Shown in pieces: positions 45,408-50,232 of a stretch of 64,000 nt of DNA. Position 1 is the stretch's first letter, and each line of letters starts with the position of its first letter. Source of the stretch: an uncultured Chloroflexia bacterium (GTDB lineage Bacteria; Chloroflexota; Limnocylindria; Limnocylindrales; CSP1-4); contig CAVURK010000006.1 of assembly GCA_963743855.1 (NCBI GenBank), positions 36,234-100,233 of the forward strand, read 5' to 3'. The position numbers and the translations under genes are program-made. The notes under the pieces were generated by a model. That model was not told the DNA's origin and ran no database searches. It was given only the letters and a program-made list of their open reading frames with translations.

Positions 45408-46144
45408 TCAGCTCCCGATCTGATGGACCGTCGCGTGGACCTCGCTGGCCGGCACCGGGTTCGCGAAGGTCAGGACGAGCACCCGGGCGACGCCGACCGT
45501 GTCGCCCTGGCAGACAGGCTGGATCGAGCGTCATGGTCCGTCCGTCCGGATCGATCGTCAGGACGTGGCGGGTGTCGGACGGGCAGCCGACCCACGTCAG
45601 CACGACCGACGCCGGATCGCTCGGCAGGTTGGCCACGCCGATGTCGGTGGCGGCCTCGTTGCCTTCGGACTGCTGGCCCGAGCGGGCCGTGACGAGCGTC
45701 CCCGATTGGTCCGTGACCTCGACGAAGGCCTGCCCACCGATGTCGTCGATGAGATCGACCCGGATGACGGCAGGCGAGGCTGGCGACCGGGCTCGGGACG
45801 GGGCTGGCGGAGGCTCGATGGCGCCACCGACGCCGTCGGCGACGCGCTGGGCTCGGGCGGGACGACCACGGCTGCGGCGTGTCGAACAGGCCGCCAACCG
45901 TGGCGACCGCGAGACCGGCAGCGAGGAGCAGAGCCGCCGCCGCGACCAGGGTCACGGTCCGTCGAGCTGCCGCGGATCCGGCCGAGCCCATCGGATCGCG
46001 GCGCATGACAGCGAGTGGATCGCGTCGGCGTGGATGCCGGCGGGCGTGGTCGAGGGCGCTGCCGATCGCGCGTTCGGGCGCGATGGACGAGCCATCGGCC
46101 AGCCAGTCATCGAGCCGGCGGTCGAGGTCCTGCGGTTCGTTCAT
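45408..46144 (-). CDS. putative membrane-anchored anti-sigma factor (frameshifted)
   Basis: ATGA overlap with the ECF sigma; short cytoplasmic LDRRLDDWL region, one TM, Pro/Ser linker, external domain with WVGC..C pair. Confidence 0.62.
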
Positions 46145-46710
46145 GCCGTCCGCTCCTTCGGGTCATCAAGTCGGTCGTCGGCGTCGATGGCTGCGCGAAG
46201 CGCTCGCGACGCGTGGTGGATCCGTGAGCCCGCCGTGCCGATCGGGATGCCGAGGACGTCGGCGATCTCGGCCAGCGACAGGCCGTTGTAGTGCTGCAAG
46301 ACGAGGACGGCTCGTTGCTCCGGCGTGAGCCGGCTGAACCCGCGCTCGAGCTGGTCCCGATCGGCGATCCGGCCGTAGTCGTCGGAACGCCGATCGGCGA
46401 TGGCAGGTGGCTCCCCTTCGTCGGGGAGCAGGCGGACGATCGGTCCGCCGCGCCGTTCGTGTTTCGCCTGCGCGACGCTGGCGCGGACGATCAATCGGTA
46501 GCTCCAGGCGTCGAACCGGTCCGGGTCCCGCAGCCGCGGGAGCTCGTCCCAGATCGTCACCAGGGTCTGCTGGAGGGCATCCTCGGCGAGATGGTGGTCG
46601 CGGAGGATGCGATGGGCCGTCGCGAAAAGGCGACCGGCTGACGACCGGACCAGGGACTCGAACGCCACCTGGTCACCGGCCGCCGCCTGTTCCACGAGAT
46701 CACGTTGCAT
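46141..46710 (-). CDS. ECF RNA polymerase sigma factor
   Basis: LVEQAAAGDQVAFESL, AEDALQQT..W, FDAWSYR, LTPEQRAVLVL..GLSLAEIADVLGIPIGTAGSRIH. Confidence 0.9.
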   Translation of the reverse strand: MQRDLVEQAAAGDQVAFESLVRSSAGRLFATAHRILRDHHLAEDALQQTLVTIWDELPRLRDPDRFDAWSYRLIVRASVAQAKHERRGGPIVRLLPDEGEPPAIADRRSDDYGRIADRDQLERGFSRLTPEQRAVLVLQHYNGLSLAEIADVLGIPIGTAGSRIHHASRALRAAIDADDRLDDPKERTA

Positions 46711-46869
46711 ATCCGTCGTCTCGATCCCCCGGCTCAGGGGAGCCATTCGGCTCCGTTCGCACGGTATGGGGTCGCCCGGCCGCGTCCTCTTCAATCTTCG
46801 TCCCGGCTGTCCAGCCAAAGGCCGGTCCCAGGCCCGAGCGAGTCGCCTCAGAGCGTCCCGGGCGGATCG

Positions 46870-46911
46870 CCATCGCGTCTCCATGGCGTCTCCACGATCG
46901 ACCGTGACCAT
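46870..46911 (+). promoter_or_regulatory. direct-repeat promoter of the ABC exporter operon
   Basis: gcgtctcca at 46875 and 46886 (11-bp period, partial third copy at 46870); CTCCACG-N9-GACCAT. Confidence 0.55.
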
Positions 46912-46990
46912 GCCCCTTGACACCAACACCGACCGACAACGCGGCGCTGGGCGTCCAGCCACGCCGCCAGACAACACCAGAGAGGACCAC

Positions 46991-47950
46991 ATGGAACCGA
47001 TGATCCAGGTCAGCCACCTGACCAAGCGCTACAAGAAGGCGTCCGTCGCGGCGGTCGACGACATCAGCTTCGACGTCATGCCCGGCGAGCTGTTCGCCTT
47101 CCTCGGGCCGAACGGCGCCGGCAAGACCACGACGATCTCGATCCTGACGACGACGCTGTCCAAGACGAGCGGCACGGTGACCATCGCCGGCCACGACCTC
47201 GATCGCGAGGCGACCGCGGTCCGCCGCAACATCGGGATCATCTTCCAGAACCCGAGCATCGACCACGCACCTGTCGGGCGAGGAGAACATCCGGCTCCAC
47301 GTCGCGATCTACGGCATCTATGGCTACCGGCCGTTCTACCGGCTGATGCCGGCCGAGTACCGCGAGCGCGTCGAGCGGCTGGCCGCGGTCGTCGGGCTCG
47401 GGCGACGACCTGTTCAAGCCGCTCAAGACGTTCTCGGGCGGCATGAAGCGCAAGCTCGAGATCATCCGCAGCCTGATGCACCGGCCGGGCGTCCTGTTCC
47501 TCGACGAGCCGACCTCGGGCCTCGACCCGGTCAGCCGGCGCGGCCTGTGGGACTACCTGCGCGAGGTCCGCAACGACCGACGGCACGACCATCTTCCTGA
47601 CCACGCACTACCTCGAGGAGGCCGAGGCGGCCGATCGGGTGTGCGTCATCGACCACGGCCGGATCGCGGTCCTCGGCACGCCGGACGAGCTCAAGCACCA
47701 GCTGCTCGATCGGGCGATCTGCTCGACGCCGATCGACCGTCCGGCGCTCGTCGCCGAGCTGCGCGGCGCTCGGCCTCGACCCGGCCGGACGACCCGACCG
47801 GCGCTGCTGCGGGTCGCCTTCGAGGCCGCGACCGCCCAGGACCTGATCGCCCGGATCCGGACGCCGCTGTCCGTGCTCCGGGTCCACGAGCCGAGCCTCG
47901 AGGAGGCCTACGTCGAGCTCCTGCGCCAGCCCGAGGAGGCAGTGGCATGA
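46991..47950 (+). CDS. ABC exporter ATP-binding protein, DrrA-like (multiple frameshifts)
   Basis: [48 protein letters not shown]. Confidence 0.88.
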
Positions 47951-48819
47951 CCGCGCGAGATCACGACCGGAGCCGGACCGAGCGATCGCGACCCGGGCGG
48001 CGCCGGTCGCCGGGCCGCGTCGGCGCGACCCTCGGCCGCGAGGTCAACGCGATCTTCGCGATCGCCTGGCGCGAGGTCCTGCGGGCGGTCAAGAGCCCGC
48101 TGTCGATCGCGTTCACGTCATCTTCCCGATCCTGTTCATCGGCGATCCTGGGCGGCAGCATCAGCCAGAACCTGGGCGGCGCGCTGCCGTTCGCCTACCT
48201 GCCCGTACATGCTCATCGGGATGATCGCCAACACGATGTACCAGGGCACGATCACCGGGGTCACCAACCTCGTCGAGGAGCGCGAGAACGACTTCACGGC
48301 CGAGCTGTTCGTCGCCCCGATCTCGCGCTACGCCGTCCTGCTCGGCAAGCTGATCGGGTCGGGCGATCGCCGCCGCTGTTCTCGCTGATCGGGATCTTCG
48401 CGATGATCTTCGTGATGCAGATCCCGATGGACGCGGGCGACCTGCTCCGGGTCCTCGCCCTGGCGCCGGTCCTCGCCCTCGCCGGCGGCGCGCTCGGCGT
48501 CTTCTTCATCGGCTTCACCCAGGATCCCAAGGTCGTCGGCCGTCGGCGTCCCGCTGCTGATCTTCCCGCAGATGTTCCTGTCCGGGGCGCTCATCCCGGT
48601 CGCCGCCTCGACCGGGCATCCTGGGCTTCCTGGCGCAAGATCATCCCGATGACCTACAGCATCGACCTGGCCCGCAACATCTTCTACTGGGGCAAGCCCG
48701 AGTACGCGGCGGCGGTCCTCAACAGCGCCGGGCTCGACCTGGCCGTGACGGTCGGCTTCTTCCTGGTCTTCACGATCGTCGGGACGTTCCTGTTCGTCCG
48801 CGCGGACCGGAACAGATAA
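47947..48819 (+). CDS. ABC-2 type permease (multiple frameshifts)
   Basis: [43 protein letters not shown], hydrophobic segments. Confidence 0.82.
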
Positions 48820-48825
48820 CGCCGC

Positions 48826-48858
48826 TCTCAGCGTCATCTCAGACGGCCGACCCAGGAT
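48826..48858 (+). promoter_or_regulatory. TCTCAG-N5-TCTCAG-N10-CAGGAT promoter (OmpR/MprA-type box)
   Basis: TCTCAG at 48826-48831 and 48837-48842; -10-like CAGGAT at 48853-48858. Confidence 0.6.
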
Positions 48859-48864
48859 CAAGGC

Positions 48865-48961
48865 TGTTACTCCTCCCCGCACGGACGCCGGCGGGCCCCG
48901 GATCGGACTGACGATCTCCTCCCTGTCAGTCAGGATCGCGGCCCGCCGGCGTTCGATCTTT
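48865..48961 (+). ncRNA. candidate small regulatory RNA with two CUCCUCCC anti-SD motifs
   Basis: CTCCTCCC at 48870 and in the loop at 48916; 16-bp + 4-bp + 7-bp nested stem spanning 48882-48955; TCTTT tail; no plausible ORF. Confidence 0.6.
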
Positions 48962-49005
48962 CCGACGACTTGACCCGTTCGCCGTCCGGACCCACCCTTA
49001 CCCAC

Positions 49006-50232
49006 ATGACCCGACGGCCCATGATCGGCGTCGGTGCCGTCGTGGTCGCCGTCGCGATCACCGTGGGGATCGCCCTCGGTGCGCCCTCCGGCGGGCCGAA
49101 GCCCGGTCCCTCGTCCGACCCATCAGCCCCAGCCGACGGTGGCTCGGCCGCGTCCGTCCCGACCCCCCTGCCGATCCCCGGGCACGAGGTCTTCGGCTTC
49201 GTCCCGTACTGGGAGATGAACGGCGACATCGCCGCGCACGTGGCCGCGACCGATCTGACGACGCTCGCCCTCTTCTCCGTGACCCACACGAAGACCGGCG
49301 CGATCGACACCAAGCAGACCGGCTACAAGCGGATCACCGGCGACATCGGAACGCAGCTGATCCGCGAAGCGCACGCGCGTGGGACACACGTCCAGTTCGT
49401 CTATTCCAGCTTCGGGACGGCCCGCAACAAGACCCTGTTCACGTCGCTGAAGATCCAGGACGCGACGATCGCGGGCCTCGTCGCGCTCGCCTCCCAGGTC
49501 GGGGTCGACGGCATCGATGTCGACGTCGAGCAGCTCGGGCCAGAGCTCGTCCCGGCCTACGGCGCATTCGTCGGGCGGCTTCGCGCAGCGCTCCGTGCGG
49601 CGATCCCGGATGCGTCCGTCTCGGTCGCCACGACATCGGGATTGAACGGCGCGGCCATGGCGGTGGCCGCGATCGGCGGCGGCGCGGACCGTGTCTTCCT
49701 GATGGGCTATGACTACCACTACGGAGGCTCCGAGGTCGGCGCGTCCGCGCCGATGGCCCGCCGTGACGGCGCCGTCCAGGACCTCCCATGGTCGCTCGAT
49801 CTCTATGCCGCGGCCGGCGTCCCGGTCGACAAGACGATCCTGGGGCTGCCGCTGTACGGGACGCGCTGGCGGGTCGCCGGGCCGGAGCTCGGCGCGCCGC
49901 GGCTCGGCAACGGCGCGATCTGGGTCCCTGCCGACAACCCGAAGTTCCTCGCCGATCCGCCCGCCCCGCCCGAGTTCGACCCCCTCGAGGTCGTCGAGTT
50001 CTACGCGGTCGCCCCGACGGTCAGCCCGGTCCCCGGCGATTCGCGCGCGACGGCGGGCTGGCAGGCCATCTATGTCGACTCGCCCGAGACCCTCACCCCA
50101 AAGCTGGCTCTCGCCGACGACCGTGGTCTGGCCGGTGCCGGTTTCTGGGCGATCGGGTACGAGCGCGGCCTGCCGGGCTACGGCGACCTCATCGCCCGCT
50201 TCGCAGCCGGCAAGCTCGAATCCTCACCGTAG
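49006..50232 (+). CDS. membrane-anchored GH18 family glycoside hydrolase (chitinase / peptidoglycan hydrolase-like)
   Basis: N-terminal TM, FGFVPYW, catalytic DGIDVDVE (DxxDxDxE), LMGYDY, LGLPLYG, GAGFWAIG; own promoter TTGACC-17-CACCCT just before the ATG. Confidence 0.85.
   Translation: MTRRPMIGVGAVVVAVAITVGIALGAPSGGPKPGPSSDPSAPADGGSAASVPTPLPIPGHEVFGFVPYWEMNGDIAAHVAATDLTTLALFSVTHTKTGAIDTKQTGYKRITGDIGTQLIREAHARGTHVQFVYSSFGTARNKTLFTSLKIQDATIAGLVALASQVGVDGIDVDVEQLGPELVPAYGAFVGRLRAALRAAIPDASVSVATTSGLNGAAMAVAAIGGGADRVFLMGYDYHYGGSEVGASAPMARRDGAVQDLPWSLDLYAAAGVPVDKTILGLPLYGTRWRVAGPELGAPRLGNGAIWVPADNPKFLADPPAPPEFDPLEVVEFYAVAPTVSPVPGDSRATAGWQAIYVDSPETLTPKLALADDRGLAGAGFWAIGYERGLPGYGDLIARFAAGKLESSP

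Follow-up and report, generated by a model that had tools for sequence, protein, structure and literature searches.

A candidate regulator-controlled anti-Shine-Dalgarno small RNA family in a genus of uncultured soil Chloroflexota

In the 64-kb stretch of DNA analysed here (the window, from contig CAVURK010000006.1 of an uncultured Chloroflexia bacterium), the gap between an ATP-binding cassette (ABC) permease frame and a glycosyl hydrolase gene of the GH18 family holds a conserved element in which a tandem promoter box, a -10-like hexamer and a long hairpin follow one another at fixed distances. Conservation and covariation among relatives make it very probable that this element encodes a functional RNA read from the plus strand. 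That the RNA has its own regulator-dependent promoter is likely, and that it acts in trans on ribosome-binding sites has a slightly better than even chance. The whole chain, namely an independently transcribed, regulator-switched and trans-acting small RNA of about 97 nt whose exposed CU-rich stretches are complementary to Shine-Dalgarno (SD) sequences, we regard as moderately probable from the comparisons described below. The initial annotation of the window had proposed such an anti-SD RNA at this locus, and every coordinate that it gave for the repeat, the hexamer, the helices, the loop and the tail matches the sequence (Table 1). In outline its interpretation holds as well, and none of the refuting conditions it named applied where they could be examined. 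As judged from sequence searches, the RNA family is confined, within the searched range, to a single genus of Chloroflexota from soil that is known only from uncultured members.

The window belongs to a metagenome-assembled genome (MAG) of 3.28 Mb that is 64.8% complete (the source genome, G000). The comparison covered 131 genomes from the genus and a wider family sample of 144 genomes across 48 other genera; no conclusion draws on the unpublished genome G231. Members of the RNA family comprise 48 copies from 47 genomes; the box was sought in all 48 copies, and the other motif and promoter features were scored in 47. Two covariance models were built, R1 from 24 sequences and R2 from all 48 accepted copies, and at the locus (G000:C6:85093-85196) they scored 100.8 and 87.8 bits, respectively.

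The long hairpin is supported by covariation. Its basal helix pairs 48882-48897 with 48940-48955 over 16 bp with one G-U pair, and its inner helices pair gatc with gatc (48901-04 with 48934-37) and gactgac with gtcagtc (48906-12 with 48925-31). In the consensus of 24 sequences we counted 25 pairs, with 92.9% of the cells paired and 8 pairs changed on both sides. None of 500 shuffled alignments attained the observed pairing, number of double changes or covariation score, and when the partners were moved by 1-3 columns as a control, only 26-49% of the cells paired. The basal and apical helices showed more base exchange with 48 sequences than with 24: pair 43-104 occurred as GC in 26, AU in 18 and GU in 4 sequences, while pair 41-106 occurred as CG in 27, AU in 10 and GC in 2. 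The segment 48860-48965 folded on the plus strand at -54.7 kcal/mol (z = -4.0), and none of 200 shuffles was as good. Since the hairpin is nearly palindromic and the minus strand folded about equally well, at -55.4 kcal/mol (z = -3.3), the fold by itself is silent on the strand. The alignment is not: the 48 sequences contained 98 G-U cells versus 42 A-C cells, and model scores were about 28-43 bits on the reverse strand versus 46-113 bits on the forward strand. For these two reasons we read the RNA from the plus strand. A small protein gene could be excluded, because single-base insertions and deletions separate the members and no GTG is conserved, the one found in others being missing from the source genome.

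The CU-rich motifs and the upstream repeat, on which the initial annotation had built its case, proved to be conserved in relatives. The sequence CTCCTCC lay in the loop region of all 47 scored members and was invariant in the alignments, and a CCUCC or CUCCC core (CCTCC/CTCCC in the DNA) was present within the first 25 nt of 45 of the 47. The 5' stretch exists in two sequence versions, GUUCUCUCCUCC and GUCCUACCUCCCC, and the flanks of the CU-rich cores are kept within each version. In the second version the pairing CGG/CCG extends the basal helix, the U run then abuts the stem directly, and the 5' CCGGCGA is duplicated. Most members read (C)GUUUC or UCUUUC in the tail region.

The promoter region is conserved too. 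With a 1-kb query, the conserved block started at the TCTCAG box and not at the stop codon of the ABC permease frame, which lies at 48819 just upstream of the first TCTCAG, and it ran on into the downstream gene. The box was found in 47 of 48 copies, the remaining one (G454) having a degenerate second repeat. Repeat 1 reads TCTCAG in 44 of 47 members and repeat 2 in 37, the two are separated by N5 in 46, and a NANNNT hexamer follows in every one of the 47, exactly 10 nt past the box in 46 and 11 nt past it in one. The resemblance to the promoters of the CiaR-dependent csRNAs of streptococci that had been suggested for this layout holds, since hexamer-N5-hexamer followed by 10 nt to the -10 is found in 46 of 47 members and fits the published description (PMC3091779). 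The -10-like hexamer and its spacing are conserved, whereas a scan with an E. coli-type consensus called no sigma-70 promoter at the RNA locus. The -10 assignment therefore follows from the conservation of hexamer and spacing and not from the promoter scan.

The hexamer 17 nt ahead of the -10, read from the sequences, is not TTGACA-like. In the established architecture of OmpR/PhoB-type activator promoters, tandem direct repeats with an 11-bp period abut the -10 in the stead of the -35, and this is the arrangement found here. Because of the repeat period and the abutting -10, we read the box as the site of an activator in place of a -35 element, rather than as a sigma motif. The initial annotation had likened the TCTCAG repeats to the mycobacterial MprA box, which they may resemble. 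At leaderless genes of the lineage the -10 stands 6-8 nt from the start, and by the same distance the RNA would begin at 48865-48867; its 3' end would lie within the short U run behind the hairpin.

The same box occurs elsewhere in the source genome. The pattern TCTCA-N6-TCTCA gave 9 matches at 8 loci, all of them intergenic and 5' of a same-strand gene, with a -10-like hexamer 10 nt on at seven of the eight. The genes behind the boxes are listed in Table 1; three of the box loci on C9 are grouped within 12 kb. In five relatives we counted 20 boxes versus 2 for a reversed control pattern, and 16 of the 20 precede orthologs of the source genome's box genes or the RNA. Two of these boxes stand before the regulator-kinase pair itself, in genomes that lack the RNA (G024, G228), and there the order is box, 10 nt, TACCCT, 7 nt and the ATG of the orthologous regulator. 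The promoter of the RNA has the geometry of this leaderless regulator promoter. An OmpR-type, envelope-stress assignment had been put forward for the locus, and it gains support from the box lying ahead of genes for an HtrA-like protease, a MacB-type exporter operon that closes with an OmpR-family regulator and kinase, as well as a YceI protein and others, and being kept at their orthologs.

The gene for the regulator lies on G000:C9 at about 585.7-586.5 kb, and its product is a standard member of the OmpR/PhoB family. Among solved relatives PrrA ranks first (E 6e-47), and RegX3 and PhoP are also among the best; these relatives carry no information on the DNA specificity of the regulator. Because regulator and RNA share box sites, we consider it the best candidate activator, apparently autoregulated. 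The regulator gene is frame-broken in the source genome, as are the ABC ATPase and permease reading frames beside the RNA (window 46607-48819, plus strand), which are broken into several. Since relatives carry these frames intact, the breaks fit assembly errors in the MAG and not pseudogenes.

Table 1. Features of the RNA locus and box loci of the source genome. Plain numbers are window positions; C6, C8 and C9 denote contigs of G000.
Feature	Position	Strand	Remark
TCTCAG-N5-TCTCAG direct repeat	48826..48842 (48826-48831 + 48837-48842)	+	11-bp period; putative OmpR-family response regulator site at -35 position
-10-like hexamer CAGGAT, NANNNT type	48853..48858	+	10 nt 3' of box
Predicted small RNA, about 97 nt	48866..48963	+	R1 and R2 covariance model matches over 48860-48963
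5' single-stranded CU-rich motif CTCCTCCCC, RNA form CUCCUCCCC	48870..48878	+	unpaired in minimum-free-energy and centroid folds
Long interrupted hairpin: basal 16-bp, middle GAUC and apical 7-bp helices	48882..48955	+	fold, covariation
Apical loop GATCTCCTCCCT, RNA form GAUCUCCUCCCU	48913..48924	+	holds CUCCUCCC at 48916-48923; read from sequence
Tail ATCTTTCC, RNA form AUCUUUCC	48956..48963	+	weak U run 2-4 nt past stem; putative terminator tail
GH18 promoter	48970..49008	+	TTGACC 48970-75, 17 nt, CACCCT 48993-98, 7 nt, ATG 49006; leaderless type; outside the RNA
GH18-family glycosyl hydrolase gene	49006..50232	+	N-terminal membrane/signal segment; Pfam PF00704, E 5.9e-20
Box with three tandem repeats	C6:636779		secreted dioxygenase-like protein behind
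Box	C6:928332		frame behind unclear
Box	C8:102080		320-aa protein without family behind
Box	C9:578363		ferric-reductase-like membrane flavoprotein behind
Box	C9:580863		HtrA-like trypsin-family protease with ApbE region and ABC ATPase behind
Box	C9:767704		YceI-domain protein behind
Box	C9:590267		operon behind: unknown 480-aa protein, MacB-type ABC exporter, OmpR-family response regulator, histidine kinase

Both motif types are concentrated well beyond chance. TCTCAG occurs 247 times on the two strands of the source genome, yet pairs of the form TCTCAG-N5-TCTCAG were observed at 3 loci versus about 0.009 expected. The motif CTCCTCCC occurs 111 times, and same-strand pairs of it 20-70 nt apart were observed twice, the RNA locus being one of the two sites, versus about 0.1 expected. 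The RNA itself has a single copy in the source genome by blastn and by R1, which disposes of the suspicion that the hairpin is a dispersed REP-like repeat. Other genomes of the genus that carry the RNA likewise have one copy each, save for G490 with two.

Searches of related genomes with blastn and the covariance models, as had been recommended, recovered the element in 47 of the 131 genus genomes. Blastn detected the conserved block in 28 and R1 gave matches in 50 at E <= 0.01, the divergent R1 matches retaining every feature when read individually. R2 matched on the forward strand 48 times in the 47 genomes, always with 50.6 bits or more, and the next best matches reached about 40 bits (e.g. 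G492, G477), counts that measure separation and are no discovery, because these matches are R2's training sequences. Weak matches in G073 and G044 outside the genus, and in G447 (contig 360) and G009 inside it, were rejected, being without box or motifs. Neither R1 nor R2 found a credible copy in the 144 genomes of the other family genera, and genomes of about 1.1 Mb from the same order, searched by blastn only, gave short chance-level matches and no more. An exact three-block pattern run over all species genomes matched 48 contigs. R1 confirmed 22 of them, all from MAGs titled Chloroflexia, Candidatus Limnocylindrales, Chloroflexota or Thermomicrobiales; the other 26 came from other phyla, and R1 gave nothing in 25 of these and 28 bits in one. 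Because every confirmed contig bears a Chloroflexota-type title, the lineage is Chloroflexota, with Limnocylindrales-like MAGs, and the actinobacterial frame implied by the earlier mycobacterial analogy falls away. No known RNA family matches: Rfam 15 at gathering score returned nothing in the 64-kb window, and a permissive scan of 48600-49200 returned six weak matches, all far under gathering score, of which five were to hairpin models of miRNAs from plants or animals.

In the mechanism that we propose, a phosphorylated OmpR-family response regulator, for which the candidate is the one encoded at the end of the box-headed MacB-type exporter operon on C9, would bind TCTCAG-N5-TCTCAG at the -35 position and activate transcription from about 48866, with the NANNNT hexamer spaced by 10 nt as the -10. 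The RNA so produced would begin with a CU-rich 5' stretch that stays single-stranded and continue into a long hairpin that displays CUCCUCC in its apical loop, and the hairpin base together with the short U run would terminate the transcript. Through both of its exposed CU-rich stretches the RNA would pair with SD regions of the GGAGG type in target mRNAs and block or modulate translation initiation. This pairing would form part of an envelope- or secretion-stress-like response that includes the HtrA-like protease, the MacB exporter, YceI and the ferric-reductase-like membrane protein. Sites of this type stand ahead of several regulon genes, among them GGAGGAG before the starts at C8:102080 and C6:928332. 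The loop also matches the start of the HtrA-like mRNA over 10 nt in the source genome; G316 does not keep this match, which was therefore dismissed as chance. The 3' tail of the 16S rRNA was not found in the incomplete source MAG.

Several observations weigh against this reading. A duplex-energy scan of the 5' stretch and the loop over 1252 candidate SD-led starts of the source genome gave a continuous score distribution without a standout target, and its top entries included wrong-frame artefacts. The best seed-complementary 10-mers are common in coding sequence, GGAGGAGATC occurring 28 times, and the many genes of the lineage that look leaderless leave a smaller pool of SD-bearing targets. 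In the lower stem, CGCCGG/CCGGCG (48886-48891, 48946-48951) is near-invariant over the 48 copies while neighbouring pairs covary; this invariance exceeds the needs of pairing and hints at a further constraint on the stem. A terminator scan made no call at the U run behind the hairpin, and since that run is short and uncalled, transcription may read through. The genomes compared are kindred, incomplete MAGs and not independent observations, R2 scored its own training sequences, and the E-values of the covariance models are approximate. Lastly, almost every locus has a co-directional gene that starts within about 50-150 nt downstream, which would fit a leader too.

If the element acted in cis, as a 5' leader or attenuator, transcription from the box promoter would serve the downstream gene; the hairpin would then be a site of conditional termination or of processing, and the CU-rich parts would work in cis or bind a factor. 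The nearby co-directional gene agrees with this arrangement: of the 48 loci, 41 have GH18 there, including one with an inserted transposase gene, 5 have an ABC ATPase and one has a NarL-type regulator. The arrangement also agrees with the weak U run, and the duplicated 5' CCGGCGA of the second sequence version could pair alternatively with the 3' arm. We nevertheless judge a leader unlikely. The claim that the next gene has its own promoter was borne out, the pattern TTGACN-N16-19-NANNNT-N5-9-ATG/GTG being present in 38 of 40 GH18-adjacent loci, where it is placed to start transcription at or beside the start codon and would yield a leaderless mRNA. This promoter of GH18 marks the limit of the RNA unit and speaks against a role as leader, even though a second promoter upstream could conceivably also serve the gene. 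The distance from the hairpin to the GH18 promoter varies from 5 to 74 nt past the RNA match without conservation. GH18 and the ABC ATPase have no SD for the CU-rich motifs to sequester, and the element retains its form ahead of three unrelated genes. On contig C20 of G490 (L184:2638-3777) a transposase gene (rve integrase core, HTH) stands between the second RNA copy and GH18, yet this copy is intact and scores 79.9 bits, and in G005 no same-strand frame follows the RNA for >1 kb. Leaderless-type promoters, with NANNNT 6-8 nt ahead of the start and no SD, were seen at GH18, at the OmpR-family regulator (L205:1501-1544) and at the ABC ATPase (G512-group loci), and they seem to be common in this lineage.

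Instead of regulating particular genes by antisense pairing, the RNA could be a titrating one or a decoy, abundant and induced by stress. Its two anti-SD-like stretches would compete with the ribosome for SDs in general or bind a protein, so that translation would shift to the many leaderless mRNAs of the lineage. In favour of such a decoy, the conserved core is merely a generic anti-SD complement, the single-genome target scan had no standout, and the regulator, GH18 and the ABC ATPase all look leaderless; the same genome moreover has another RNA-like locus, found more widely and with two CCUCCUCCC loops, which is described below. We consider it improbable, because the flanks of the CU-rich cores are kept within each sequence version, as specific pairing predicts, and because known CU-rich small RNAs have defined target sets (PMC4615179, PMC3091779).

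The hairpin and the box might instead be unrelated elements that happen to lie side by side, the hairpin being a terminator or insulator for the upstream gene and the box a DNA site for a neighbouring protein gene, either GH18 or the divergent ECF sigma factor gene, with no functional small RNA. A co-directional gene does end just upstream in the source genome and in about 17 other loci (ABC permease in 4, alpha/beta hydrolase in about 14), and in 8 of 48 loci the ECF sigma gene is the divergent upstream neighbour and starts within about 100 nt of the box. We give this explanation little weight. Box and hexamer, 10 nt apart, are kept as one block together with their distance from the CU-rich stretch, on the strand that reads into the hairpin, and an invariant CUCCUCC loop above covarying stems is not needed by a plain terminator. 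In the source genome the box stays beside the hairpin, with the ABC operon between it and the sigma gene. Upstream neighbours vary between loci: an alpha/beta hydrolase gene is found in 19 of 48, divergent in 5 of these; an ABC permease gene lies within 50 nt in only 4 of 48, and in several relatives it sits elsewhere; and in 13 of 48 the upstream gene is divergent and leaves nothing to terminate. Because of this variation the hairpin cannot be merely the terminator of the ABC operon, an explanation that the initial annotation had named as a possible refutation of its own proposal. Neighbour genes were assigned in these comparisons by tblastn and Pfam, as stop-to-stop frames are too noisy in DNA of 70% G+C.

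That the locus is a REP-like dispersed repeat, a small protein gene or a minus-strand RNA is highly improbable: the near-palindromic hairpin does fold on the minus strand, where its motifs would look like strong SD sequences, but the frame behind the SD-like motif is only 3 codons long in G001, the excess of G-U over A-C cells and the promoter block both point to the plus strand, and the one copy per genome (two in G490) and the single-base indels without a conserved start codon speak against a repeat and a protein gene, respectively.

The anti-SD small RNA that we favour has a close functional parallel in the csRNAs of Streptococcus, which depend on CiaR of the CiaRH system. According to the published account (PMC3091779), these share with the present case a promoter layout of hexamer direct repeat, N5 and 10 nt to the -10, an OmpR-family regulator (here a candidate), a short RNA with anti-SD stretches and an HtrA-type protease in the regulon (htrA itself in streptococci). 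In the same account the repeat of the csRNAs is TTTAAG or (N)TTAAG, compared with TCTCAG here, and two stem-loops flank an unpaired anti-SD/anti-AUG stretch, whereas here a single long hairpin carries one motif in its loop and the other lies in the 5' single strand. The csRNAs as described there also belong to Firmicutes and have had expression and regulator binding demonstrated, while the present RNA, from Chloroflexota, is predicted from sequence comparison. The Rfam csRNA models had no match in the 64-kb window or in the permissive scan of 48600-49200.

A second parallel is provided by the cuckoo/CcsR RNAs of Alphaproteobacteria, whose CCUCCUCCC loops are interpreted as anti-SD (PMC4615179, PMC8034643). 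Like cuckoo, CcsR and ar14 as described there, the present RNA holds a CU-rich, anti-SD-like motif (CUCCUCCC) in a hairpin loop and repeats it within one short molecule, and a fixed loop motif is combined with compensatory changes in the stem; cuckoo is, in addition, linked to stress. The cuckoo RNAs differ in having 2-4 short hairpins next to one another, every one with the complete CCUCCUCCC (PMC4615179), compared with one long hairpin plus a 5' single-stranded copy here, and in often being processed from the 3' untranslated region behind a DUF1127 gene under RpoHI/HII-type promoters, compared with the response-regulator box here. The models RF02791 and RF02344 (cuckoo/CcsR/ar14) were not listed at E <= 10 for 48600-49200.

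More distant parallels exist among other small RNAs. LhrC of Listeria, controlled by LisRK, and OmrA/OmrB of enterobacteria, controlled by EnvZ-OmpR, belong to two-component systems that sense the envelope, and they pair with mRNAs in or close to the ribosome-binding site, for which LhrC uses CU-rich loops. Both the targets and the chaperone requirements of these RNAs are known. In the Rfam scans the present RNA showed no sequence or model similarity to them, and architecture and lineage differ. The 6C RNA of Actinobacteria (RF01066) likewise has C-rich hairpin loops, which are thought to pair with G-rich mRNA stretches, in a high-G+C lineage of Gram-positive type. Its loops carry a C run, as opposed to CUCCUCC in the Chloroflexota lineage described here, and the RF01066 model found no match, either across the window or in the permissive scan over 600 nt. 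By these analogies the RNA is a new family that would work like the csRNAs or the cuckoo/CcsR RNAs while belonging to neither, membership being denied because repeat sequence, architecture, lineage and the Rfam tests all fail to agree. We know of no regulatory small RNA described in this uncultured soil lineage, and a search of the accessible literature for small RNAs of Chloroflexi or Limnocylindria found nothing relevant.

The comparison of sequences alone has thus yielded a testable circuit, consisting of a DNA box, a candidate autoregulated OmpR-family system, an envelope-type regulon and a structured anti-SD RNA. Its logic is that of CiaRH, the csRNAs and HtrA in streptococci, assembled from unrelated sequences in a distant phylum, and on this analogy it would be a clear case of convergence. 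With the covariance model, the RNA can be annotated in metagenomes and metatranscriptomes from soil.

Outside the window, at G000:C9:376124-376264 on the plus strand (L216:1425-1565), lies the only other genomic site with two close CTCCTCCC motifs. It forms two adjacent hairpins with CCUCCUCCC in each loop, stands directly behind the stop codon of a gene and has no TCTCA box. Rfam models matched it below gathering score, CcsR1 with 26.3 bits (E 1.9e-4) and ar14 with 27.7 bits, and blastn recovered it in 108 of the 131 genus genomes. From these features it looks like a cuckoo-type RNA outside Alphaproteobacteria. At least two sorts of anti-SD-type RNA thus seem to exist in the genus, a widespread cuckoo-like one and a younger one, wired to a two-component system, in about one third of the species. 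A bolder picture would have the genus run the box-controlled and the cuckoo-like RNA as one anti-SD family that, instead of repressing single genes, masks SDs broadly on stress and moves ribosomes to the many leaderless mRNAs of the lineage. We hold this to be very doubtful; if it were true, the favoured mRNAs would include those of the stress regulator and of the neighbouring GH18 and ABC genes.

Along the window, the genes around the RNA follow in the order alpha/beta hydrolase, ECF sigma factor, ABC ATPase and permease, RNA and GH18. The ECF sigma factor gene occupies 46144-47028 on the minus strand and encodes Sigma70_r2, r4_2 and ECF domains. Beyond GH18, frames on the plus strand between 50267 and 53589 are again broken and carry CheB methylesterase, CheR methyltransferase, PAS and histidine-kinase domains; their product may be a fused chemotaxis-type sensor kinase.

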